Below, in pieces: positions 1 to 12,935 of a DNA stretch of 64,000 bases. The stretch comes from Candidatus Bathyarchaeia archaeon. Its GTDB lineage: Archaea > Thermoproteota > Bathyarchaeia > 40CM-2-53-6. The position numbers were made by a program, and so were the translations under genes. Under the pieces are notes generated by a model that was given only the letters and a program-made list of their open reading frames with translations, made no database searches and was not told where the DNA came from. The stretch spans positions 96,001-160,000 of the forward strand of contig JBEKSC010000001.1 of NCBI GenBank assembly GCA_049517415.1, read 5' to 3'. Within the stretch, counting starts at the first letter, position 1, and each line of letters opens with the position of its first letter.

Positions 1-1827
1 GGCAACGTGTTGGAAGACGAAGAAGCTAAGGTGGTTGCCCACCAAGTCCTTGCCTGAGTTACGCAAATCGACTGGGTACCAGTAAAGAAACTCTTCCCGT
101 ATCTTCTCCAAAACTCTCCGATCGGCACCGGTTTGCTTGCTCAGTTCCTCGGACTTCCCCGTCCCGTAGAATATGAAATCGAAAATCTCAGGGATGAGCT
201 GCTCGGGCTTGATGTCCCCTGCATTGACAAATTTGCTCACCATGTAGTATGCCATGTAAATGGTTGAGTCGCTAAGCGTCTCTACGATCCAGTCCGGACT
301 CCATGGAAGAGGTGTGCCTAATCCTGTCTTTCGCGCACAAGGCCAGTCTTGCAGCCAATCGATGATGCTGTTCATCCATGTTCTGGCCTCCTCTGGATAG
401 AATGACATCTTGGAAATTGCCCCGTGCGTCCGTTCCTTCCATTCTGGGTCAGAGTACTTCAGGAACCATTGGTCCGCCAGGATTTTGGCTACACATTCAG
501 TGGTGCACCGGCAAACAACACGCTGCGGCAGCTCGTACATTACGTCCGCAATTCCCTTTCTTCTGAATTCAGCCACGAGAGATTGCTTGACGTTCGCAAC
601 CTTCTGCTTGGAGTAAGGGCCACAACTATCTTTGAGGAAACCACTGTGAAATTCTGCCTTGTAAATTTCCTTCGTCGCTTCCTCAGCTAACGGGTCGTTT
701 TGGTCACGAATTCTCATGCGGTCAACGATCTCTATTGCGGGAAATTCACCGTAGCCTTCGACCGATATTACTGAGATGGGTTGAATCACTGAAACGTCAT
801 CAGACTTAACGGCGAAGCCCTCCACGCTCGCCGGATTCTTCTGAATATCTCTTAAAGCAAGCCAGTCGAACGGGGCGTGTGCGGGAACGCTGTACACCAA
901 GCCAGACGCGTTATTTGTGTTCACGAATGTTCCAGGTAAAATCAATAGCTCCCTGTCCTGAATGAGGTCAAAGCATTTCTTTCCTACAAGTTCAGCGCCC
1001 TTCAGGTTCCTGATGACGGTGACACTTTTCAGTTGGTTGCGTAATTTTTCTGACGCGGGTCTGCTTATGACCCAATGTTCTCCGTTCACATCGGCCTCAA
1101 CGTACTCACCGTGAGGGTTGACCCAGAGATTAGTGACACCATAAATTGTCTCGGGCCTGAAAGTTGCGCAGGGTAAGAAGATCTCTCCCATTTTGAACTT
1201 CATTAGAATGAATTCTTCCGGTCTGACGCCTTCGCCCTCAAGCCTATCGTGATCACCCGTTGGGCTTTCGTCTTTCGGGCACCACACTACCGGGTGCGTA
1301 CCCTTGATGACGTACCCCCTTTCTCGAAGGCGTAGGTATTGCCAAACAACAAACTTGCTGAAAGCCTCGTCCAGAGAACTCGTGTGAAAATCTCTTCGCC
1401 AATCCACCGATATCCCTAAACGCTTTATCGCGTCACGATTGACGTCAGTATAATATTTCGCCATATACGCGGGGTCAACAAACTTCTTCAAATCGTCCTC
1501 TGCGACCTCGTCTACCTCCCTTATCGGTCGAATGAATTCTTCGTCTCCCATTTTGATGCGTTCAGCCGCGCCGGCAAGGGGCTTGCCAGTCCAATGCCAA
1601 GCCCACGGGTAGAGGACGTTGACACCGCACATCCGTTTGTAGCGTGCGTACACGTCTATTCTAGCGGCGGTGAAGCCGCTCCCGACGTGCAAGGGCCCGC
1701 TCATGTATGCGAAGGGAAATGTGACGAAACATTTCGGCCGTTTCGGGTCGGGGTCGGCCTCGAAGAGTTTTGCCTTAGCCCATTCTTCCCGCCATTTCTT
1801 GTCCAAAGCCGGCCAGTCAACAGGCAT
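1..1827 (-). CDS. leuS: Leucyl-tRNA synthetase, archaeal type (5' part; runs off window start)
   Basis: Not in ORF track. Manual translation from ATG 1827 gives MPVDWPALDKKWREEW...FVTFPFAYMSGPLHVG (HIGH-like motif)...WHWTG...THPVVWCPKDESPTGDHDRLEGEG...TFRPETIYGVTNLWVNP. Starts 5 nt after the alaS stop. Confidence 0.95.
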   Translation of the reverse strand, partial: MPVDWPALDKKWREEWAKAKLFEADPDPKRPKCFVTFPFAYMSGPLHVGSGFTAARIDVYARYKRMCGVNVLYPWAWHWTGKPLAGAAERIKMGDEEFIRPIREVDEVAEDDLKKFVDPAYMAKYYTDVNRDAIKRLGISVDWRRDFHTSSLDEAFSKFVVWQYLRLRERGYVIKGTHPVVWCPKDESPTGDHDRLEGEGVRPEEFILMKFKMGEIFLPCATFRPETIYGVTNLWVNPHGEYVEADVNGEHWVISRPASEKLRNQLKSVTVIRNLKGAELVGKKCFDLIQDRELLILPGTFVNTNNASGLVYSVPAHAPFDWLALRDIQKNPASVEGFAVKSDDVSVIQPISVISVEGYGEFPAIEIVDRMRIRDQNDPLAEEATKEIYKAEFHSGFLKDSCGPYSKQKVANVKQSLVAEFRRKGIADVMYELPQRVVCRCTTECVAKILADQWFLKYSDPEWKERTHGAISKMSFYPEEARTWMNSIIDWLQDWPCARKTGLGTPLPWSPDWIVETLSDSTIYMAYYMVSKFVNAGDIKPEQLIPEIFDFIFYGTGKSEELSKQTGADRRVLEKIREEFLYWYPVDLRNSGKDLVGNHLSFFVFQHVA

Positions 1828-1832
1828 GATTA

Positions 1833-4595
1833 TCACTTCAAGACCGCTTTCAGCGCCGATTCCGAGTTCCGCATCACTTCGTCAACCGCATTTAGGTTTG
1901 TTCCGCCGCCTTGGCCGAAGTAGTCTTTGCCCCCGCCACCTCCGCCTAGCATTGCGGCAAGTTTGCTGGCGAGCTTCCCCGCATTCACACCTTGAGCAAT
2001 TGCATCTTTTCCAGCACCGACGAAGATTCGGGCCGAATCCTTGACGAGGATTAGTACAATGACCGCGCTAGGTTCTTTCTCGACGATCTTGTTGTTCAAC
2101 GCGACTAAATCGCTCTCTTCACCACGATCATATTTGGCAGAGCACATCATTACGCGGCCGACGATTTTCGGAGACTGCAGAAGTCTTACAGCCTCTTGCT
2201 CCGCCCATTGTTTAGATAGTTCTTCGAGGCGTTTGGCCAGCTTTGTCCTATCTTCAACAAGTGTCTGAACGTATTGGTCTACTTTTTCGATGGGCGCTTC
2301 GACGACCGTTGAAATGCTTTTGATTTTCTTCTCCTGTTCTTGGAAGGCACGTAAAGCTTGAGTGCCTGCGGCGAAGATTATTCGTTCTACGCCGTCCTGA
2401 ATGCGCTCTGTGTGCAGAATCTTGATGGTCCCAATCTGTCCTGTCCTAGTGCAATGCGTTCCACCACATGCTTCCACATCCCAATCGCCAATCTTGATTA
2501 CCCGTACCTCCCGGCCGGGCACAACCCCTCCTTGGTAGAGCTTGAAACCATAAGCCTGCTCAGCCTTCTCCCTGGGCAGCCACTCGGACTCTACAGGAAT
2601 GTCTTGGAGGGCTACTTCCGTTGCAAGCCTTTCAATTTCTCTTGCCTGTTCCTCCGTAATTCTCTCGTAATGCGATATGTCAATTCGGCTGGAGTCAACG
2701 CCCTTCTTCGCGCCGGCCTGCCAAGCATGTTGACCCAGCACCCTTCTAGCCGCACCCAAAACCAAGTGTGTGCCTGTATGATGACGCATCAAACTGATGC
2801 GCCTGTTCCATTCAATTGAACCTCGCACGATTTCCCCAATGCGAGGTGGTGTACCTTCTATTTGGTGGACTATGATTCGGGTAACTTTCTGTGTGTCTAC
2901 GACTTTGATTGGCCCATTAGAGGTCTGAAGGACTCCGATGTCGCCGGGTTGGCCACCCCCTTCGGGGTAGAAGCAGGTTTGGTCCAAGACGACGAACCTG
3001 TTTTCGAGGATCGCGATTACTTTTCCTTGGAACTCCTTCTGGAAGGGGTCTTTGTAGTATAATGTGGCAGTGTCCTGTAGCCCGCTGACCTTGTCCTTCA
3101 GTGAGTCAATCACTTTCGATTCTGTTTCTTCCTCTGAAACGCGCTTTACAGACAAATGCTTCTGGGCGACCATTCCATAGAAGTTTCCCGGAGGATCCAC
3201 TGATACCCCGAGCGGTTCTGCGATCTCTCGCACTATGTCCGGAACCATTCCGTGAGAGTCATACAAGTCAACGAGAGTCTGCGGAGGAATTTCGTTAAGT
3301 CCCTTAGTTTTCAGGTCGCTTGCAATTTTCTTTACTAGGTCTGAGCCCCGTTCGATTGTTCTTCGATACTTGGATTCTTCTGACTTGATTTCTCCCGCTA
3401 TCTCACTCTTCATTCCTTTTAGTTGAGGGAAGTCGCCACCCCAGTAGTCTACTTGGGCGTCGATTATATCCAACATTTTGTCTTCAATGCCCAATTGGCG
3501 CAGCATTCGGTAGGTCCGTCGAATCAGCAAACGGATCAAGTAGCCTTCTTCAACGTTTGAGGGAACAACGCCCTCTGATAGTAGGAAGGCAATTGCCTTT
3601 GTGTGATCGGCAACCGCCATCGCACTTTCAATCGGCGTAAGAGCCTTCTCGAGTTCCCTCCAATCCATGCCTATACTTTCGGCAACTTTCTTTCGGGCAT
3701 CAATACGGCTCTCGTTGCGTTCGATGTTCATGTAACTCGAAAACGGAACAACTTTTGCAACCAGCTTCTCGTCATACTTGAGGTTGGCTAGTTGGAATAT
3801 GCTGTCTAATACCTGGCCGTAAAGGACCTCGAAAGCGCTGGCTGTTCCCTGGCTTAACCATGCCCAACGCTCTATCCCGTATCCCGTGTCGACGGTTCGG
3901 ATCGGGAGTTTGACGAGTTGATCGCCCTGAACCTTGTACTGCATAAAGACTAGGGTGGAGATTTCTAGTCCGGCGCTAAGACACTCAAGGTCGGGGCCAG
4001 CGTTTCCGCCTCCTGACCAGAAATGCTCTTTGTATGAAATCGATTCCGACTTCAGGCCGAACTCTTCGGTGGCTAGCTGGTGGTGGTAGCGGATTGTTTG
4101 GTCCATCCAGTAGACCTCCTTGTCAGGGTAGTTGAAGGCGTGAGCGCCTCCCATTTCGAACATTAGCTCATGGCGCCCCAATGTTGGGCCGACATTGTCT
4201 ATGTCCGTGAACCTAATGGATGGCTGACTGACGACGAGTGGGTTTGCTGGGGGCGGAATCATACCTTCCGTAACGTAGGGCTGGAAATCGTAGATCGACG
4301 CTCCTACAAGGAAGACATCATCCCGCCACCGTGCCACAACCGGGTACGGGTTGATCCTTTTGTGTCCATTCCGTTCGAAGAATGACAAGAAAAGTTCACG
4401 CATATCATGAATGGAGTACCGCCGCTTAGCTGGAGGTTTCCCAATAAACGAGTATTGAACGCAGGGACTGTCTCCGCAGAATTTCTCGTCAGGCCTCTGA
4501 GTCCAGAAGTAACCTTTGCAGCATTCACACTGCTTGCGCTGAAACCCATTCTCCTTGAAGAACGGGACGGCGAATTCTTTCTCATTAATCTCCAT
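1833..4595 (-). CDS. alaS: Alanyl-tRNA synthetase
   Basis: 920 aa. Archaeal N-terminal CxxC zinc motif, ARWRDD, WSGGGNAGP, DTGYGIER, editing HxxxH/CGGTH, C-terminal GGGGG. Confidence 0.98.
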   Translation of the reverse strand: MEINEKEFAVPFFKENGFQRKQCECCKGYFWTQRPDEKFCGDSPCVQYSFIGKPPAKRRYSIHDMRELFLSFFERNGHKRINPYPVVARWRDDVFLVGASIYDFQPYVTEGMIPPPANPLVVSQPSIRFTDIDNVGPTLGRHELMFEMGGAHAFNYPDKEVYWMDQTIRYHHQLATEEFGLKSESISYKEHFWSGGGNAGPDLECLSAGLEISTLVFMQYKVQGDQLVKLPIRTVDTGYGIERWAWLSQGTASAFEVLYGQVLDSIFQLANLKYDEKLVAKVVPFSSYMNIERNESRIDARKKVAESIGMDWRELEKALTPIESAMAVADHTKAIAFLLSEGVVPSNVEEGYLIRLLIRRTYRMLRQLGIEDKMLDIIDAQVDYWGGDFPQLKGMKSEIAGEIKSEESKYRRTIERGSDLVKKIASDLKTKGLNEIPPQTLVDLYDSHGMVPDIVREIAEPLGVSVDPPGNFYGMVAQKHLSVKRVSEEETESKVIDSLKDKVSGLQDTATLYYKDPFQKEFQGKVIAILENRFVVLDQTCFYPEGGGQPGDIGVLQTSNGPIKVVDTQKVTRIIVHQIEGTPPRIGEIVRGSIEWNRRISLMRHHTGTHLVLGAARRVLGQHAWQAGAKKGVDSSRIDISHYERITEEQAREIERLATEVALQDIPVESEWLPREKAEQAYGFKLYQGGVVPGREVRVIKIGDWDVEACGGTHCTRTGQIGTIKILHTERIQDGVERIIFAAGTQALRAFQEQEKKIKSISTVVEAPIEKVDQYVQTLVEDRTKLAKRLEELSKQWAEQEAVRLLQSPKIVGRVMMCSAKYDRGEESDLVALNNKIVEKEPSAVIVLILVKDSARIFVGAGKDAIAQGVNAGKLASKLAAMLGGGGGGKDYFGQGGGTNLNAVDEVMRNSESALKAVLK

Positions 4596-4603
4596 TAACT
4601 GAT

Positions 4604-4679
4604 ACCCCCAGCCGACAGAACGAAGCAGACTAAACTAGTTAGCTATTTGCCCGCTCCCTCTGTCAGCGAGGTGCGAGCA
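4604..4679 (-). promoter_or_regulatory. alaS leader RNA: SD-sequestering hairpin and alternative hairpin
   Basis: ACCUC-GCUGACAGAGGGAGCGGGC pairs with GUCUGCUUCGUUCUGUCGGC-UG-GGGGU, covering the SD 8 nt before the alaS ATG. The alternative stem UGCUCGC-A-CCUC/GAGG-GA-GCGGGCA is mutually exclusive with it. Confidence 0.65.
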
Positions 4680-4716
4680 CGAGGGCCTGAAGCAAAAGCA
4701 GAAGATTAGCGGACAT
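4663..4716 (-). CDS. Putative Leu/Ala-rich leader peptide MSANLLLLLQALVLAPR
   Basis: ATG TCC GCT AAT CTT CTG CTT TTG CTT CAG GCC CTC GTG CTC GCA CCT CGC TGA: 7 Leu and 3 Ala codons of 17, directly upstream of alaS-leuS. Confidence 0.6.
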   Translation of the reverse strand: MSANLLLLLQALVLAPR

Positions 4717-4802
4717 GAGGCCCAGCTCTAACTCAGATATTCAGCTAAGCATACTCATAATGTTTACTTCAGAAGCGTTGCGGCCGGGAAACAGAGCAGG
4801 AC

Positions 4803-5080: not shown

Positions 5081-5836
5081 TCATTGGGAGATGGTTTCGG
5101 TTTTGAGTAATGCTGGAAAAACCGAGCGAACCTTGTTCGGTGGGCGCATTGAAGTCAGACGGCTCTGTTTCAGGCCCATCGAAACGAGTACCTCGGCAAG
5201 CTTAAGGCATGCCGCTGCGGCGTTCACCACTGGGACCTCGTAACCGTCCTCCTTGAGTAGACTTTCAACCTTCTTGGCTACGCCCGTCATGCCCGTGCAA
5301 CCGAGTACGAGAACATGCGCGCCATCTTCTTGTATGGCCGCAATCATCTCCTTGTGTAAGGCCTCGACAAGCTTCCCTTTTTCTTCCAAGCCAAGAACCG
5401 GAATATTCGCAAACCTAACGGAAGCAAGCTTCTTCTCAAGACCATACTGAGCCGCGAGGTCTTCTGCTAACGGAAGAAAATTGCGTAACGTCGTGACTAC
5501 AGAGAACCGCTGCCCAAGACAGGATGCGAAGTGCATTGAGGCTTCCGCGGCTCCGACTACGGGAATGTTCAGGATCTCTCTGGCAGCCTTCACTCCCGGA
5601 TCACCGAAACAGTTGCTTATCACAGCGTCGTATCCTTCAGCCTCAGCTTGCTCGGCTTGGCGAAGGAAATCGGGTACGCAAAGAGCTTCATCTAATTCGC
5701 ACTCAATGGATTCCGGTCCGAAGTCTAAATGCGTAAGGGTTATCTGCGTTCCAGGAAAAGCGTAACTGGACATCTCTCGCTCCTCCTCGGCATCAAGTTG
5801 ACCGGACGTGATCGGGTTAATGACTTTAAGTTTCAA
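5081..5836 (-). CDS. Asp/Glu/hydantoin racemase family (allantoin/hydantoin racemase-like)
   Basis: KVINP, GPESIE, CFGDPG and LGCTGM two-Cys motifs. Likely TTG start at 5836; the ORF extends to 5893. Confidence 0.88.
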   Translation of the reverse strand: MKLKVINPITSGQLDAEEEREMSSYAFPGTQITLTHLDFGPESIECELDEALCVPDFLRQAEQAEAEGYDAVISNCFGDPGVKAAREILNIPVVGAAEASMHFASCLGQRFSVVTTLRNFLPLAEDLAAQYGLEKKLASVRFANIPVLGLEEKGKLVEALHKEMIAAIQEDGAHVLVLGCTGMTGVAKKVESLLKEDGYEVPVVNAAAACLKLAEVLVSMGLKQSRLTSMRPPNKVRSVFPALLKTETISQ

Positions 5837-5886
5837 GGACTTCGCAAATTGATACTCGTACCCGCCCTTAAATGATTTTGATTCAA

Positions 5887-6099
5887 TCACCAAGATGCGA
5901 AATGGTCGAACGACGGGTGCACTTCACCTACTTCACATACTCTCTCTTCTGCATAGGCTGAAAGACTGAAAATCCCAGAACTGTAGACTCGCGTCGCCAC
6001 CGAAATGTCTTTGACGTTCTCGTCGACCTTTTCGACAATCCCAGCAGCCTCGATGCCGGGAAGAAGAGAAACTAACTTATTGTGGCAGCAGTCATTCAA
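5887..6099 (-). pseudogene. Fragment of MDR/quinone oxidoreductase (GroES-like domain)
   Basis: LPGIEAAGIVEKVDENVKDISVATRVYSSG...AYAEE matches the MDR N-terminal domain. No Rossmann domain follows. Confidence 0.6.
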
Positions 6100-6113
6100 A
6101 CTAGGTTAGTTTC

Positions 6114-6497
6114 TTGGAGTCTGATGCAAAACCATATGTGAAAGACGAAATCAAATTCTGTAGACTTTCCGACCTAAAGGAAGAATGGCTAAATCCAAAG
6201 CTTTCGAGGAGGACTATCTCGGGAAATAATGAGATGCTCGGCTATATCGTCCTGTTGAAAGGGTGTGTTGTTCCACCCCACAAGCATGTGAGCGAACAAA
6301 TCACAGTCATTCTAAAGGGTGCGCTGAAATTCACAATAAACGGAAAAGATACCGTCGTGAAAGAGGGAGAGGTTTTGGTAATTCCGTCGAACATTGAGCA
6401 TACTGCAATTGCGATTGAAGATACACTAGACCTTGACTGTTTCAGCCCTCCTCGAGAAGATTGGGTTGCAGGTAAAGATAACTATCTGCGTGGCTAG
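6114..6497 (+). CDS. Cupin domain protein
   Basis: PPHKHVSEQ...GEVLVIPSNIEH...FSPPREDW. Confidence 0.9.
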   Translation: MESDAKPYVKDEIKFCRLSDLKEEWLNPKLSRRTISGNNEMLGYIVLLKGCVVPPHKHVSEQITVILKGALKFTINGKDTVVKEGEVLVIPSNIEHTAIAIEDTLDLDCFSPPREDWVAGKDNYLRG

Positions 6498-6733
6498 GGC
6501 GGTTGTGCATTTAGAGTTCGGGCACGACTCCGGTACTCATCGACGCTTTCTACGGATTCGTTGGGTCTGTAGGGGCCATCATAGTATGTTGCCACTCAGC
6601 TAGGAGCCGACCTCAACAACTTGAACACTGATGCTGAGGTTTTTCGGCCTTGATTGATTTTGTGACTCATACATGCAATTGTAAATCTAACTAGAGTATG
6701 TATCGACCCCTTATATCGGCTCCCGACTTCTAG

Positions 6734-6803
6734 CCCTAGTTGCTCCCATCCCAAGCTTGCGAGCGTCCCGCCGGACAGAGGGGAGCAGACTTAGGGATTC
6801 GAA
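6734..6803 (+). promoter_or_regulatory. Structured 5' UTR candidate of the pdh-like operon
   Basis: TATA-like TTATAT at 6711. P1 CCCTAG-TTGCTCCC/GGGAGCAG-AC-TTAGGG encloses hairpins GCT(TGCG)AGC and GTCC(CGCC)GGAC. Confidence 0.4.
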
Positions 6804-8411
6804 ATGAAGGACGATCGAATTACGGACCATCCTATTGTGCGATTCGACCGCGGAGAACCCGTCACATTCTTCTTCGAAGGGAGACCCGTTGAGGGATATT
6901 CAAATGAGACCATCGCAGCCGCGCTCTATGCGAGTGGCGTAAGGACCTTCAGTCGAAGTATGAAGTATCATAGACCCCGAGGCTTCTTTTGCGCAATAGG
7001 CCGCTGTTCAGCCTGCATGATGACGGTTAACGGCATACCAAATGTTCGAACTTGCATGACGAACATCCGTGACAGTATGAAAGTGCAACGGCAGAGCGGT
7101 TTTCCTAATGCTGATCATGATCTCTTTTCAATAATGGACAAGCTTGGATTCTACTTCTCGCTGAAGTCAGGTTTCTATCACCGAAAGATGATCTCTCCAA
7201 GCTTCATGAGAGGCACCTACATCAAAGTAATCACGTCGTTTACGGGCTTGGGAAAACTTCCAACGAAAAAGGCCATTCCAACCACCAGAACCGATAAAGT
7301 TCACGAGAATGTTGACTTAGTAATAATCGGAGGCGGACCTGCCGGGCTTACGGCTGCGTTGGAAGCTGGGCGAAGGGGCGCGAAAGTCGTTATACTCGAC
7401 GACAAGAAAATGCTAGGAGGACAACTCGTAAAGCAAACGCACCGGTTCTTCGGCGATGCCCGACACCACGCGGGAGTGAGAGGTATTCGAATCGCCGAGA
7501 AGTTGACGAAGAAAATCTTTGAATTGAGAAATATCAAACCCTACGTAGGCGCAAGCGTCTTCGGAATATTCGATAAACATACAGTCGGAGCGGTACAAGA
7601 GGATAGGTTACTGAAGTTTGAAGCCCGAAAGATAATCATTGCGACAGGCGCCTACGAGAGGACTCTGGTTTTCGAAAACAACGATCTACCAGGCGTGTAC
7701 GGGGCGGGCGGTGTCCAAACTCTGATGAACACCTACGCAATAAAGCCGGGCTCAAGAGCCTTGGTTGTAGGGTCTGGGAACGTTGGCCTCATCCTTACCT
7801 ACCAACTCCTTCAAGCAGGCGTCAAAGTAGTAGCGATCGTTGAAGCACTCCCAAAGATTGGCGGGTATTTGGTTCATGCAGCCAAAGTTCGTCGACGGGG
7901 CATCCCGATACTCACATCGCACACGGTTCTCAAGGCACTAGGACGCAACCGCGTCCAAGGAGCGGTGGTCGCGCAGATCGACAACTCATTCAAGCCGATA
8001 GCTGATACTGAACGGCGCTACGAATGCGATCTCATATGCATCGCAGTCGGACTCACGCCCACTTACGAACTAGCGTCTCATGCAGGAGCGCAGATGCAAT
8101 TTGTTCCGGAACTAGGCGGGTTCGTACCGCGAAGAACCAAGTCATTGGAAATTTCAGAAGGAACCTACATAGCGGGGGATTCTTCCGGAATCGAAGAAGC
8201 AACAACAGCTATGCTAGAAGGCCAGATTGCTGGAGTTGACGCCGCGACAAAGCTAGGTTACGGCCTGCCTGGTGATGAAGAGCAGCTCGCGGGATGGATC
8301 AAGCAACTGGACGACGTTCGGTCTGGGCCATTTGGCGAGAAGATTCGACGAGGACTTGAGAGCGTAATAACAGAAGAGGGCATGATTGGAGCAAAATCAA
8401 TTGTCCATTAA
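6804..8411 (+). CDS. pdhA: Dye-linked L-proline dehydrogenase/sarcosine oxidase-like alpha subunit (2Fe-2S + FAD/NAD)
   Basis: RPRGFFCAIGRCSAC...C 2Fe-2S domain, GGGPAG, LGGQLVKQTHRFFG, ATGAYER, GSGNVG. Confidence 0.85.
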   Translation: MKDDRITDHPIVRFDRGEPVTFFFEGRPVEGYSNETIAAALYASGVRTFSRSMKYHRPRGFFCAIGRCSACMMTVNGIPNVRTCMTNIRDSMKVQRQSGFPNADHDLFSIMDKLGFYFSLKSGFYHRKMISPSFMRGTYIKVITSFTGLGKLPTKKAIPTTRTDKVHENVDLVIIGGGPAGLTAALEAGRRGAKVVILDDKKMLGGQLVKQTHRFFGDARHHAGVRGIRIAEKLTKKIFELRNIKPYVGASVFGIFDKHTVGAVQEDRLLKFEARKIIIATGAYERTLVFENNDLPGVYGAGGVQTLMNTYAIKPGSRALVVGSGNVGLILTYQLLQAGVKVVAIVEALPKIGGYLVHAAKVRRRGIPILTSHTVLKALGRNRVQGAVVAQIDNSFKPIADTERRYECDLICIAVGLTPTYELASHAGAQMQFVPELGGFVPRRTKSLEISEGTYIAGDSSGIEEATTAMLEGQIAGVDAATKLGYGLPGDEEQLAGWIKQLDDVRSGPFGEKIRRGLESVITEEGMIGAKSIVH

Positions 8412-8892
8412 AGACGGTATAATCCGGCTTGAAGAACTGCACGCTCTGCACCTCGTGCCCCCACTTGCAAGGCTGAGGGAGAAGCGGCCGATCGTTATGA
8501 TTGAATGCGTTCAAGAGATTCCATGCAACTCATGCGCCATGGCATGCAAACTAGGCGCGATAAGGATGGAAAACGTGAACGCCATCCCAACAATAGACTA
8601 CAATAAATGCATTGGCTGCATTTCCTGCCTCATGGTATGCCCGGGGCAGGCGGTCTTCCTTCTGAAAGTAGCCGAGGGCATGGGGCAGATAACAATGCAA
8701 TACGAATTTCGCTCCGTCCCGGAGATTGGAGATCTGGTTCACGCTCTTGACCGCGACGGCAGAGTGCTTGGCGAAGCAAAGGTGATCCGAGTGTTTCCAG
8801 CTGACCGAAATGATGGAACAGCCCTCATAACGATCCAAGTACCAGAAGACTGGCTGTTTAGCGCAAGGGGCATTGCAGTTGGCGATCCATAA
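8386..8892 (+). CDS. 4Fe-4S ferredoxin subunit of the PDH-like complex
   Basis: IECVQEIPCNSCAMAC and CIGCISCLMVCP motifs; overlaps the alpha subunit gene. Confidence 0.88.
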   Translation: MEQNQLSIKDGIIRLEELHALHLVPPLARLREKRPIVMIECVQEIPCNSCAMACKLGAIRMENVNAIPTIDYNKCIGCISCLMVCPGQAVFLLKVAEGMGQITMQYEFRSVPEIGDLVHALDRDGRVLGEAKVIRVFPADRNDGTALITIQVPEDWLFSARGIAVGDP

Positions 8893-9158
8893 TGGGCAAG
8901 AAGATAGTTTGTTACTGTGAAGATCTCACCGAGGAGGATTTCCTTAAGGTCATCGAAGAGGGATACGATGACATTGAGAGCCTGAAGAGGTACTCCGGTT
9001 TCTCGACTGGGCCATGCCAAGGAAAAACCTGTATGATGCATGTCCTAAGGTTACTTGCGCAACAGCAGAAGCTGAAACCCACCGAACTCCGTCTGACAAC
9101 TCAGAGACCCCCGGTAGATCCCGTGGCACTGAAAATCCTCGCTAGAGATGAGAAGTAA
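8892..9158 (+). CDS. BFD-like 2Fe-2S small subunit
   Basis: VCYCED...TGPCQGKTC...TQRPP; TAATG coupling. Confidence 0.88.
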   Translation: MGKKIVCYCEDLTEEDFLKVIEEGYDDIESLKRYSGFSTGPCQGKTCMMHVLRLLAQQQKLKPTELRLTTQRPPVDPVALKILARDEK

Positions 9159-10243
9159 TGCGAGTCGTGGTCATAGGCGCGGGCATAACCGGGCTTAGCA
9201 TAGGATACAACCTCGCAAAGAGGGGCGTGGATGTCGTAGTATTAGAGGACAGGTATCCGGGAAGTGGAATAAGCGTCAGAGCGATCGGAGGAATCCACTG
9301 CCAATGGGACAACGAGAATGATATTACAATGGCAAAGAAGGGTCGAGAGATACTAAGCAGGTTACCTAACGAACTTGATTTCTTCATACCGTTTCGACGA
9401 GATGGTTACTTGATGGCTGCAACTGAGGAAGAGGAATTCAAACTACTGGAAAAGAATGCAATGCTGCAACGGTCGCTAGGAGTCGATACGGTCACGGTTT
9501 CAGCGGAGCAGATGAGCAAGCGATACCCGTTCCTCGAAACCGATTCAATCGTGGGTGGCACATTTTCCAAAGGAGACGGTGTAGTTCACCCGTTCTCCGT
9601 CGTTTTCGGATATTGGCATGGGCTTGAAGCCAATGGAGGGAAATTATGTAAGTCAACTAAAGTTGGCAAATTGGAGACGGATAGGAATCAGGTTATCGCA
9701 GCGTGGACAAATCAGAACAAGTTCGAGGCGGATGTGTTTGTCTTAGCGGCAGGCGCCGGAACAAGAGAAATCCTGCGCCCGTTGAATCATGAAATCGCAT
9801 CAGAACCAATTAGGCACGAGATGCTAGCTACAGAACCGCTGAGATTTTTCATCAAGCCAATGATACAGCTACGCCCGAATGGCTTGTATCTCAATCAGAG
9901 TATGAGAGGCGAGGTGATATGCAGCGTGGCGCGTCCCAAAGACACTGCTCACGAAGAGAGAAGATCAACCTTAGAGTTTCTTGAATACGCTGCAACTGAG
10001 TTAACCCGTCTAATGCCCTCGACCCGCGGGGTGAAGGTACTGCGTCAGTGGGCTGGTGTGATTGAAACCACACCAAACCTCAGGCCATTTTATGGTAAGA
10101 TTGGGTACGATAACCTATGGGTAGCCTACGGAGATTCTGGCAAGGGGATAATATTCGCTCCCGCAATAGGAGAAATGATCTCGAACTCCATTGTAACCAA
10201 TGAAACCGACCCAGATCTGTTGGACTACAAGAATACGTGCTGA
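9158..10243 (+). CDS. pdhB: FAD-dependent amine oxidase (PDH/sarcosine oxidase beta-like)
   Basis: IGAGITG FAD motif, DAO-family fold, RQWAG..TP; operonic with the alpha and ferredoxin subunits. Confidence 0.82.
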   Translation: MRVVVIGAGITGLSIGYNLAKRGVDVVVLEDRYPGSGISVRAIGGIHCQWDNENDITMAKKGREILSRLPNELDFFIPFRRDGYLMAATEEEEFKLLEKNAMLQRSLGVDTVTVSAEQMSKRYPFLETDSIVGGTFSKGDGVVHPFSVVFGYWHGLEANGGKLCKSTKVGKLETDRNQVIAAWTNQNKFEADVFVLAAGAGTREILRPLNHEIASEPIRHEMLATEPLRFFIKPMIQLRPNGLYLNQSMRGEVICSVARPKDTAHEERRSTLEFLEYAATELTRLMPSTRGVKVLRQWAGVIETTPNLRPFYGKIGYDNLWVAYGDSGKGIIFAPAIGEMISNSIVTNETDPDLLDYKNTC

Positions 10244-10378
10244 CGCCGTGAATCAAGGAGCGTCTGATGAGCGAGCGGCAATACGTGCATTATCTACTTG
10301 CATTGTCCACGTCAAAGCACTAAAGATAAAGTCCTAGTGCTTGAGGCTGGCACGTGATCCTGTTAAGGAGGGTGACTA

Positions 10379-10492
10379 GTGAGTAGAGCGAAATGCCTTG
10401 TGACCTTAGATTGCGGTCATGTCGCTACTATCGGTGCTGTGAAGTCCTCGTCGGACAGGTTTGGATGTGAAAAACCGTCGGGTGTGTGCTAA
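10379..10492 (+). CDS. Putative 37-aa Cys-rich microprotein or remnant
   Basis: Strong SD GGAGGGTGA before GTG; MSRAKCLVTLDCGHVATIGAVKSSSDRFGCEKPSGVC. Confidence 0.3.
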   Translation: MSRAKCLVTLDCGHVATIGAVKSSSDRFGCEKPSGVC

Positions 10493-10812
10493 GTGTCTGT
10501 CAGCCCAAGAAGTCTAGCGATAACCGAAATTTGAGCTTCTTGTCGTTTGTTCTGTCCGGTAATCTGTTTTGCTTCATCATACTCTTTACGAGCCTGTTCC
10601 ACAGAAGCAATGTGCCTATCAACAATCTCATCTAGAACTGGCTTGTCAGTATCATCAAGACCGGCCATAACTATAATCACAGTTTTGTTCGGAGGAGCCG
10701 TCACGCTACCACTAAAATTTGGAAATCTTCGCTTTATGGCCTCACTTAACTTCGATGTGTTGCATGTCTTACCATAAAAGTAGCTTTGCATCGACAATGC
10801 CCATTTCCACAA
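10489..10812 (-). CDS. Hypothetical protein (probable start MQSYFY at 10791)
   Basis: Open ~100-aa ORF with protein-like composition and a helical C-terminus. No family recognised. Confidence 0.55.
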   Translation of the reverse strand: MWKWALSMQSYFYGKTCNTSKLSEAIKRRFPNFSGSVTAPPNKTVIIVMAGLDDTDKPVLDEIVDRHIASVEQARKEYDEAKQITGQNKRQEAQISVIARLLGLTDT

Positions 10813-11192
10813 TACGGAGACTTGCTTAAGAAATCATCCAGTCAAGTTCTCTCAACGGCTATTTCTCATATATTTCTGTCCTTGCTTTCTTGGTTCTGTT
10901 CTCTACGGACGACTTTTTTTGCAGTCTGAATTAAGTCGTCAATTTCGTTCCGTTTGCCGTTACCAAGTAGCTCCCGCTATGGAAAGGAAAGCTAGCAAAG
11001 TATATTCAGAAAAGAATGCAGACATAGACGACCCTCGACCTTAGCCCAGCTGCTGTTCTGTGACGTGAAATTATTCTCGGACTGGATCAACTGATGAGCG
11101 ATTTGATTTCCAGAAAGAGTTTTCCAAGGCTCGGTCCTGTCTCGGTTGAATTGGTCTAGTGGGAACAATCTTTCTGGTCACTAACTATGGAT

Positions 11193-11681
11193 TTAGGATG
11201 GAAGACCGCCCTTTGCCTTTGAATATAATTCCTCAAGCCAGATTTGGTGGTATTTTTCCATGTTGTTAGGTCTAAATAGTTTGTTGAGTTTGGCTAGAAT
11301 GCCTTTCTGGTTTTCTTCTGTCAGAATATAGCAACCAGACTCTCTCTTTTCTATCAGCCATGCATGATAAGCGTCTATCCCGATGCCATGTGCAGTCCAG
11401 GCCAGGCGTTCATTTGGGACAAATTCCTCGACCTTTGATTCAAGGTTCAGGCCAAAGGTCTTCCACTTGAATTTGGTGCCGAGGTGCAGGTCTGGTTTTC
11501 CATCATCCATAATTACATTGGCAGAATTGCCGTACCATGTTGGCCATAGTTTTGCTCTGATTAGCCATGCCCACACTATATCAGCAGATACTGACATCTC
11601 CAATTCGTTACTTACATGCACATCCACATTGTTTTGGCTATATTGTTCCGGCCATTTTATTGACCTAGAATCTTTATCCAA
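11193..11681 (-). CDS. SRPBCC/START (polyketide cyclase-like) family protein
   Basis: VWAWL...WPTWY...LGTKFKWKTFG...VEEFVPNERLAW; visibly AT-richer than its neighbours. Confidence 0.85.
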   Translation of the reverse strand: MDKDSRSIKWPEQYSQNNVDVHVSNELEMSVSADIVWAWLIRAKLWPTWYGNSANVIMDDGKPDLHLGTKFKWKTFGLNLESKVEEFVPNERLAWTAHGIGIDAYHAWLIEKRESGCYILTEENQKGILAKLNKLFRPNNMEKYHQIWLEELYSKAKGGLPS

Positions 11682-11844
11682 ATTACCACCATAAAATTTG
11701 TATTAGCATTTAATACAGAAGTTAAATCTTATAAAAGTCTCTAGTCCAGTTGGAGAGACCTCGTCGATGTGCATGGCGTCTTCAGGTTCTATTTCATCGT
11801 AAGTAACTACTCTCAAACCAAAACCGCCTCGCTGCCCGGTTCAG

Positions 11845-12045
11845 TCATCGTTGGCTAGATCTGCTGGGACGGGAATATTCCCTCCTGGAACCTGAATCTT
11901 GTGGGACGCTGCCTTGCTTCCCGCACCAGGATTGATGAAGATCGTAGAGGCGCTTTCCTTCCGCATCGTTTGTGAATTTAGCCCCGCACCGGCAGACAGT
12001 GTATTCCTCAGACAAAGAACAGCCAGCACCTAGCCGAGGAAACAA
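11845..12045 (-). CDS. Small putative zinc-finger protein (CxC-x16-H-x3-C)
   Basis: VCRCGAKF...YDLHQSWC; likely TTG start at LSEE. Confidence 0.45.
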   Translation of the reverse strand: MFPRLGAGCSLSEEYTVCRCGAKFTNDAEGKRLYDLHQSWCGKQGSVPQDSGSRREYSRPSRSSQR

Positions 12046-12105
12046 CGTTAACGTAACTGTAAAAGGTTAAGCCGCATCCTCCAATCTGAATGTTCAGGGC
12101 CAAAG

Positions 12106-12501
12106 ATGCCATCATTTGTTGTTCATGAACACTGGGCGACGGCCCACCATTTCGATTTCCGTTTGGAAATGGACGGCGTTCTGAAATCGTGGGCTGTCCC
12201 CAAAGGGCCTCCACTAGAGGCTGGGATCAAACGTCTCGCGGTAGCGGTGGATGACCATCCGATCGATTACGGCTCATTCGAGGGAACTATTCCGGAAGGT
12301 GGGTACGGCGCTGGAAAAGTAGTGATTTGGGACAAGGGAGAATACACTCTCATCGAACGAGGACCCCGTTTGCTACGCCTCGAACTTCACGGGAACAAGC
12401 TGAAGAGCGAGTATGCACTCGTCTACTTCAAAGAAGAACGTGGCCAAGCACAGTGGCTACTATTGAGAAAAAGTGTGGTAAGCTCCTCGAAGCGGAAATA
12501 A
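12106..12501 (+). CDS. Stand-alone LigD 3'-phosphoesterase (PE domain)
   Basis: FVVHEHWATAHHFDFRLEMDGVLKSWAVPKGP...DHPIDYGSFEGTIPEGGYGAG. Confidence 0.93.
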   Translation: MPSFVVHEHWATAHHFDFRLEMDGVLKSWAVPKGPPLEAGIKRLAVAVDDHPIDYGSFEGTIPEGGYGAGKVVIWDKGEYTLIERGPRLLRLELHGNKLKSEYALVYFKEERGQAQWLLLRKSVVSSSKRK

Positions 12502-12629: not shown

Positions 12630-12935
12630 TCAACCGAACAACGCGCCGAGGCCGGCTAATGCTTCTTCTCCTTTCTTTTTCTCGTCTTCTGCTCCTTCCT
12701 TCTTGTCCTTCTTTCCTTCAGCTGGGGCTGCGGCTGCAGGTGCTGCGGCCACCGGCATTGCTTGCGCGGCCTTTAGGGCGTCGTCTATCTTGATTTCTGA
12801 GAGCGCCGCGACTAGGGCCTTAACTCTTGGCTCATCAGTCTTGACTCCGGCTGCTGTTAGAACTTTCTTTACACCATCTTCAGTTATTTTGCCGCCTGCT
12901 GAATGTAGCAGAAGAGCAGCGTAGACGTATTCCAT
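12630..12935 (-). CDS. rpl12: 50S ribosomal protein P1 (L12)
   Basis: [11 protein letters not shown]...GLGALFG. Confidence 0.98.

Follow-up and report, generated by a model that had tools for sequence, protein, structure and literature searches.

Ribosome-read amino-acid sensing through leader peptides is textbook knowledge for bacteria. In Escherichia coli, pheM-pheST and the leu, thr and ilv operons carry leader-peptide transcription attenuators, and the thr and ilv leaders sense several amino acids. The leader described here, which precedes the alaS-leuS operon of an uncultured Candidatus Bathyarchaeia archaeon, is like them in placing cognate codons ahead of synthetase genes and in having one RNA strand with two partners; it differs from them in that an intrinsic terminator is lacking, the hairpin ends at the Shine-Dalgarno (SD) sequence, and the alternative helix is no anti-sequestor in the folding model. 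A classical transcription attenuator of the trp/leu/thr/pheST type was therefore rejected: the cognate-rich leader ORF is present, and a terminator with its U-tract is not.

The closest working likeness is offered by the mycobacterial poly-Cys short-ORF attenuators (Ms5788A; 10.1101/834739, in the portion available), in which a short ORF is built of cognate codons, the stalled ribosome blocks a structure sequestering the site of the next gene, and the operon follows, as is proposed here. The stall-frees-site logic has been shown in mycobacteria (same source, same portion). The present case differs in being archaeal, in being leadered with its own SD-like site (the mycobacterial ORFs are leaderless), in involving two amino acids and tRNA synthetases, and in being known from sequence and models. 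In ermC and cat-86, as summarised in the accessible part of 10.1101/834739, a stalled ribosome likewise frees the SD, the signal there being an antibiotic together with the nascent peptide. The actinobacterial LEU element before leuA (PMC1262725, available sections) shares with our locus a uORF with a Leu run and a base stem covering the SD; in the LEU element pairing with the SD falls to the Leu codons themselves, and a pseudoknot has been proposed; here the last codons do the pairing. Membership in the LEU group was rejected, since the anti-SD (4672-4668) lies downstream of the Leu run and no pairing of the run with the SD is found. According to the same sections, mutations of the Leu codons in the LEU element behaved contrary to the prediction of attenuation, which counts against an attenuator reading here; they also give a Streptomyces leuS attenuator as a predicted case of a cognate-codon leader. 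Finally, in the coupling of E. coli rpmI and rplT (PMC12548453, as far as its accessible text goes) an upstream ORF ends in a structure inhibiting the next gene about 50-70 nt away. Our leader has a similar layout, and differs in that the modelled opening precedes the stop codon, on Leu/Ala codons, and hardly occurs at termination.

No archaeal leader-peptide amino-acid sensor was found in the literature searched, which included the available portions of PMC11456600, PMC10117724, PMC7261190, PMC12186497, PMC7531240, PMC13158618 and PMC1854888; subscription coverage was partial, and an earlier report is possible. Archaeal Ribo-seq papers, in their accessible parts, list uORF candidates without function, and the Methanosarcina and Haloferax uORF tables may hold comparable leaders. 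The matching of synthetase levels to tRNA charge in archaea is little described in the same partly accessible literature.

The window, i.e., the whole 64,000-nt stretch of DNA analysed, carries the operon on its minus strand. alaS (1833..4595) encodes an archaeal-type alanine-tRNA ligase of 920 aa (NCBIfam TIGR03683, 1102 bits), and leuS (1..1836), identified as leucine-tRNA ligase by its NCBIfam match, extends past the window edge. Its start was placed by the earlier note 5 nt past the alaS stop, and an ATG is indeed found there (1827); an in-frame GTG (1836) overlaps the alaS stop as well. Among the listed loci that reach far enough, leuS follows alaS throughout the order. The ancestral upstream neighbour of alaS is rpl12, encoding the P1 stalk protein, which outside the genus of the window usually ends 30-140 nt before alaS (among the loci listed). 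In the window, rpl12 (12630..12935, minus strand) lies about 8 kb from alaS, so the rpl12-alaS junction has been opened by insertions; since the distance between the two genes ranges from 0.3 to more than 3.6 kb across the genus, the junction is a rearrangement hotspot. The roughly 7.5 kb of genes between rpl12 and the leader (5081-12501) include an Asp/Glu/hydantoin racemase-family gene, a cupin, a START-like protein, a LigD phosphoesterase domain and, on the opposite strand, a sarcosine-oxidase-like cluster. A small Cys-containing gene without a Pfam match follows rpl12 (11845-12045, minus strand); judged by eye, a frame resembling it seems to lie just upstream of alaS in the genus loci L009, L011-L013, L015, L016 and L114. 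Elsewhere in this genome a single strand carries a cluster of four synthetase genes, pheS and pheT with two class Ic genes around them (G000:C7:5306-11123).

Upstream of alaS, a uORF of 17 codons (4663..4716, minus strand; ATG at 4716, TGA at 4665-4663) contains seven Leu and three Ala codons. Five consecutive Leu codons form a Leu run (codons 5-9, 4690..4704, minus strand), which in relatives usually numbers three; after it comes an Ala/Leu block (codons 11-15, 4672..4686, minus strand) whose codon 13 is Val. The composition and position claimed earlier, namely 10 of 17 codons Leu or Ala and a run of five Leu between 4716 and 4663, were thus borne out in full. The bias extends beyond the part of the uORF involved in the alternative helix discussed below, 8 of the 11 codons outside it being Leu or Ala. 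Among 6,941 short upstream ORFs of this genome (8-35 codons, upstream of 2,522 crudely called ORFs) the uORF ranks first for Leu plus Ala (binomial 4e-5); the pair of amino acids was picked because of the downstream genes and the next-ranked ORFs are close behind, so the weight of the rank lies in its match to alaS-leuS and not in the p-value alone. Part of the bias may also be structural, since the final codons of the uORF can complement the hairpin's purine strand. Across the aligned leaders of relatives (alignment A1, described below), the Leu codons flanking the run and those in the block are mostly CTT or CTC (18% and 24% of Leu codons genome-wide), a preference that may point to one tRNA isoacceptor; ARAGORN finds 30 tRNAs in the assembly, none of them reading CTT/CTC. 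The gap between the uORF stop and alaS is 67 nt. The archaeal reinitiation range is given as 30-40 nt in the accessible part of PMC12548453, and the gap therefore exceeds what termination-reinitiation from the uORF to alaS would require.

The distribution of this leader was studied in loci gathered by AlaS similarity, blind to the leader. The genus set, delimited by an AlaS N-terminal identity of 83% or more, consists of 79 distinct leaders, of which 45 have the full element, 8 the hairpin only and 26 neither; the loop motif of the hairpin occurs in 53 of the 79. All 45 leaders carrying segment 1, the conserved stretch just upstream of the uORF, have a start codon in the Leu/Ala frame shortly after it; the segment-1 pattern was written after the sequences had been seen, with variants added for divergent loci, which makes the count of 45 partly circular. 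Of the genus genomes, 20 include the start of alaS; the complete leader is found in 10 of them, the hairpin alone in 4, and neither in 6. In a short alaS tree, complete leaders occur across the deepest branches of the genus, and up to 20 separate clades lack one, a number that, with a tree of 366 nt, serves as an upper guide; the 34 leaders lacking the full element include genomes with 98% AlaS N-terminal identity. The element thus looks ancestral in the genus and often lost, as far as its sequence distribution goes. The conservation of the uORF in relatives on which the earlier note had staked its reading is therefore found in 45 of 79 leaders, with selection at the codon level. Two uORF classes can be distinguished: in one the stop lies at the hairpin base, and in the other a one-base shift after the last Ala moves it into the loop, so that the C-terminal codons of the two classes differ. 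Indels before the Ala/Leu block preserve the reading frame, and the spacing from the Leu run to the opening window described below is constant in relatives.

A covariance model built from the element of the genus (g1) recovered the window copy in its own genome plus one hit with E=3.2, found nothing in five of five genus genomes with a leaderless alaS (a run without a positive control), and in 150 other genomes of the class, under stricter filters, gave only two weak hits (E 0.005 and 0.007). The latter come from other families and from contigs not bearing alaS (the L253:1501-1594 region and L254). A subclade of leaderless loci (L011, L053, L060, L067, L072, L076, L080, L083, L086, L087 and L089) shares a conserved block with an A/T-rich core 70-190 nt before alaS, which may represent a substitute promoter or the remains of a gene.

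Segment 1 itself (4719..4728, minus strand) comprises the SD-like sequence of the uORF and a 5-nt arm and is conserved in alignment A1, which contains 43 of the 45 full leaders, two near-duplicates being excluded. The arm (4723-4719) can pair with 4687-4683 and would then enclose the uORF start; this 5-bp helix is 93.5% paired over the 43 rows, with one pair showing a two-sided change. Further upstream, a purine-rich BRE-like tract and a TATA-like box form a candidate archaeal promoter (4755..4770, minus strand), with a predicted start at about 4735-4730. In 42 distinct upstream stretches the A+T content reaches 81-93% at -45 to -41 from the uORF start, an A-rich block lies at -52 to -48, and a TATA-like word is present at -47 to -42 in 31 of the 42. 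We take the A/T-rich box and the preceding A-rich block to be TATA and BRE, and the usual TATA spacing would presumably put the transcript start about 17 nt upstream of the uORF. The reading of the earlier note depended on a start that does not fall downstream of 4716, and the position predicted from the box agrees with it.

Selection on the codons was assessed in A1 by parsimony counts of substitutions over the nine codons that begin with the Leu run and end with the last Ala; the rows are kin and not independent, and transition bias was left uncorrected. The peptide frame shows 35 synonymous and 32 non-synonymous changes, a dN/dS-like ratio of 0.42 as against 1.62 and 2.99 in the other frames (binomial 3e-4), and no row of the 43 has an in-frame stop over the tested codons (5 and 11 rows do in the other frames). 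The four N-terminal codons have a ratio of 1.01 and no stops. These figures make it very probable, from sequence comparison, that the uORF is translated. The three Leu-run positions shared by relatives hold Leu in 34, 39 and 40 of 43 rows, and the middle codon of the run has undergone 12 synonymous and 3 non-synonymous changes. Block codons 11-15 are Ala in 43, Leu in 43, Ala in 32 (Val in the window), Leu in 41 and Ala in 40 of 43 rows. The Leu following the first Ala is invariant with five synonymous changes, the invariant Ala before it lies within a helix and uses the same codon in 41 of 43 rows, and the last Ala has 7 synonymous and 3 non-synonymous changes. At the Ala position best placed for sensing, which is Val in the window and non-Ala in 11 of 43 relatives, 8 non-synonymous changes stand against 1 synonymous, and sensing of Ala is for this reason less secure than that of Leu. 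The dual Leu/Ala sensing claimed earlier is consequently better supported in its Leu half; sensing of both amino acids is possible, at a little under an even chance.

The last uORF codons constitute an anti-SD (4668..4672, minus strand) whose pairs are conserved in relatives. A long hairpin (4611..4667, minus strand), made of a purine strand (segment 3), a loop and a U/C-rich pyrimidine strand (segment 4), keeps it beside the alaS SD, which is G-rich here (4604..4609, minus strand, 8 nt before the ATG) and of the GGAGG type in most relatives. The region 4680-4596 folds with -37.8 kcal/mol (z -4.2; none of 200 shuffles matched it), and when segment 4 was shuffled 60 times at each of 15 genus loci, no locus gave more than one equally stable shuffle. 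In the minimum-energy structure the SD (4609-4604) pairs with 4672-4668, so that, as in the poly-Cys leaders, the uORF pairs with the downstream SD; four anti-SD pairs are retained in 39-41 of 43 rows. The anti-SD/SD helix is absent from the centroid, and this bottom helix is therefore marginal. The masking hairpin postulated in the earlier note thus stands as the minimum-energy fold and in the retained pairs, and does not extend to the centroid. In the alignment the closed structure has 90.9% of cells paired and 6 of 25 pairs with a two-sided change (3 of 500 shuffles as high), and its covariation score is not above that of shuffles (161 of 500 as high). RNAalifold gave 12 pairs only, blurred by register shifts, and was not used as a full model. 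A T-box or another Rfam cis-regulatory RNA was rejected as an identity of the element, since no curated covariance model matched the leader at the gathering threshold (one chance hit, E=3). Taken together, the element is a real, conserved leader within an SD-masking structure.

The end of the uORF can also pair with the purine strand in an alternative helix (4648..4679, minus strand), a folding intermediate: it is the minimum-energy fold of transcript prefixes ending from 4647 to 4617 and would form first during synthesis. The earlier note had assigned to this mutually exclusive hairpin the role of freeing the SD. The helix exists; forcing it, at a cost of 9.1 kcal/mol, lowers the opening cost of the alaS site in the window only from 8.0 to 7.6 kcal/mol, and a drop above 1 kcal/mol is seen at a single locus of 20, since the pyrimidine strand set free pairs with the SD region. 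Its pairs are kept in 89.5% with no covariation within the genus. As the SD-freeing state at equilibrium it was rejected on the forced-fold opening costs. A second proposal, that the Leu run competes for the purine strand, fared no better: the 7-nt repeat on which it was based is present at both 4702-4696 and 4629-4623, and pairing of the run with the purine strand was rejected, since no covariation signal appears (427 of 500 shuffles as high) and the central G-C is broken in 19 of 43 rows. The alternative helix is moderate in g1 and strong in most loci of the genus g15, in several of which it is near-isoenergetic with the closed form. Such early folding would suit control at the level of transcription, in which the position of the ribosome sets the exposure of segment 4 to FttA/aCPSF1 and the main output is premature termination and not SD access; segment 4 is pyrimidine-rich, and FttA is held responsible for archaeal polarity (PMC12548453, in its accessible part). 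The absence from the leader of any terminator-like hairpin with a U-tract, the hairpin leading directly into the SD, and the fact that the conserved pairing targets the SD itself speak against this explanation, which we regard as hardly probable.

A translational attenuator is the reading that we favour. Transcription would start about 17 nt before the uORF, and ribosomes would translate it. The last uORF codons, as seen in the sequence, are an anti-SD that the long hairpin holds on the alaS SD; the alaS site is modelled as mostly closed on ribosome-free RNA, and likewise while a ribosome occupies the stop, and when the purine strand is covered the pyrimidine strand could pair with the SD region instead. 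The best opening is predicted when the leading edge of the ribosome lies over the anti-SD and leaves the stem uncovered, a state reached while the A site holds one of codons 13-15. A shortage of charged Leu-tRNA, and probably of Ala-tRNA too, would prolong the dwell and allow more alaS initiation; leuS would follow through coupling over the 5-nt gap or overlap, possibly also through relief of FttA polarity. We infer the stalling, the sign and size of the response and the share of FttA.

The opening window comes from folding with ribosome-footprint constraints, an approach that the earlier note had proposed and that places the opening of the alaS site on the last Ala/Leu codons, barely or not at the stop. 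The masked footprint extended 7, 9 or 11 nt beyond the first base of the A-site codon (the 11-nt reach was taken from Haloferax; PMC7261190, available part), with equilibrium folding and hard masks, and the outputs give direction, not fold change; the rows for L214, L222, L228 and L216 were left out. In 18 base-stop loci the best median change in opening cost for the three reaches was -2.0, -2.2 and -3.2 kcal/mol, with codons -5 to -3 in the A site, compared with -1.2, -0.3 and -0.2 kcal/mol for a ribosome at the stop; for one on the Leu run the change was -0.1 to -1.7. Six loop-stop loci showed -1.8 and -2.6 kcal/mol at the homologous codons for two reaches, no fall at the shortest, and a rise near the stop and at it (by 1.0 to 1.5 at the stop itself). 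In the window the cost falls from 8.0 to 4.1-4.3 kcal/mol with codon 13 (Val) or 14 (Leu), depending on the reach, and to 5.5-7.7 kcal/mol with codon 15 (Ala); a ribosome at codon 11 or on the Leu run brings no opening (8.0-8.9 on the run versus 8.0). The stall at codons 11-15 supposed earlier to unmask the SD is therefore reproduced for codons 13-15 and not for codon 11 or the run, which in relatives opens the site weakly. Overall the modelled opening is modest, with a median of 1.5-3 kcal/mol at the last Ala/Leu codons, and varies with the mask edge.

That the Leu run is under codon selection and yet opens no site in this genome counts against the attenuator. The run may work by slowing ribosomes or making them queue, by a kinetic effect while the RNA is being transcribed, or by way of the nascent peptide. 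TnaC, SecM and ErmCL are precedents for arrest peptides. A hydrophobic peptide that pauses the ribosome, constitutively or on a free amino acid or other cue, would use the same RNA switch with a signal other than tRNA charge, and the Leu run would be inside the exit tunnel while codons 13-15 are decoded. Arrest of this kind would explain amino-acid-level selection on the run without a structural route, and the constant spacing between run and opening window fits it. The composition, however, is exactly that expected for the two synthetases downstream, the two uORF classes diverge in their C-terminal codons, and the peptides of g15 and of family f5 share composition and not a fixed motif; nascent-peptide arrest is accordingly improbable.

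Further lineages connect the hairpin with rpl12. In g15, 8 of the 9 genomes that include an alaS start were covered, and a hairpin occupies the same place in all 8; the g1 covariance model missed these leaders, so homology between g15 and g1 rests on position and architecture only. In the two g15 loci where rpl12 is far away the uORFs have 12 of 16 and 13 of 18 codons Leu or Ala (7 of 11 and 9 of 13 outside the helix). Four loci still beside rpl12 have weaker uORFs, enriched overall, with an outside-helix excess that is not significant (p 0.10-0.28); the remaining two show one weak candidate uORF and one block out of frame. In family f5, two genomes with alaS detached from rpl12 have uORFs with 9 of 15 and 5 of 10 Leu/Ala codons (5 of 8 and 3 of 3 outside the alternative helix), and three rpl12-attached genomes have no Leu/Ala-rich uORF. 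In families f6 and f9 the long hairpin begins directly at the rpl12 stop, Leu or Ala occupies 5-6 of the final 10 rpl12 codons, and an alternative helix is present. The footprint model applied to the rpl12 tail at six loci predicts an opening of 1-3 kcal/mol on its Leu/Ala codons in three, at its far end in one and none in two. The Ala/Leu-rich tail could thus have been the original sensor of an rpl12-hairpin-alaS-leuS unit, replaced by leader ORFs in g1, g15 and f5 after rearrangement, a scenario that we consider rather doubtful. In leaderless relatives outside the genus (L152, L154, L156, L157, L159, L162-L165, L167, L168, L172, L173 and L175) a near-invariant 35-nt motif lies between rpl12 and alaS within the first 55 nt after the rpl12 stop. 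It consists of an SD-like 5' arm, a 4-bp hairpin with a conserved 8-nt loop, and a closing stem (8 pairs, none two-sided, 14 of 14 aligned), and is possibly a binding site for a protein (ribosomal protein or AlaRS).

The same junctions raise the alternative that the hairpin, inherited from the rpl12-alaS junction, is unfolded by any translating ribosome with no sensing of amino acids; the uORF would have replaced rpl12 after rearrangement, and its Leu/Ala bias would be mostly a by-product of complementarity to the purine strand. The hairpins of f6 and f9 that begin at the rpl12 stop, the non-significant outside-helix excess in the four rpl12-adjacent g15 loci and the frequent loss of the element are in line with this. 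So is the f9 locus L228, which lacks rpl12 and has in the same place a uORF with only 3 of 15 Leu/Ala codons, ending in the hairpin; since it is not Leu/Ala-rich, it counts against sensing as the sole job and provides a natural non-Leu/Ala control. This uORF, located 120-72 nt before alaS and equipped with a strong SD, takes over the final bases of rpl12 in a different reading frame, and its end lies in the 5' arm. Of the 8 genus loci that have the hairpin only, 5 show an ordinary ORF, 31-113 codons long, whose end falls within the 5' arm or the loop (among the other three, one ORF ends further in, one locus has only ORFs of at most 20 codons and one meets a contig end), although such an end within a 65-nt stretch holding a conserved stop is partly a chance expectation. 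Against constitutive coupling stand the modelled ribosome at the stop, which barely opens or even closes the alaS site, and the synonymous excess together with the Leu/Ala enrichment outside the helix; we consider it unlikely.

The attenuator, by comparison, fits better than plain coupling and is the probable reading, with codons that match both downstream enzymes (first of 6,941) and a synonymous excess in the peptide frame. Weighing against it are the 34 of 79 genus leaders without the full element and the absence, by eye, of any obvious cognate-rich uORF at 18 other synthetase-family genes and two HMGL-like genes of this genome. The alaS-leuS leader is thus most likely a Leu- and perhaps Ala-sensing translational attenuator, of a kind known from bacteria. 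If the descent from the rpl12 tail is true, it would be a two-amino-acid, ribosome-read archaeal attenuator whose derivation from an ordinary protein gene can be traced. The element makes a compact test object of 140 nt: 45 natural variants in two structural classes are available, together with natural losses and a control leader that is not rich in Leu/Ala. In these archaea, the levels of two synthetases may be set by its reading of two amino acids.
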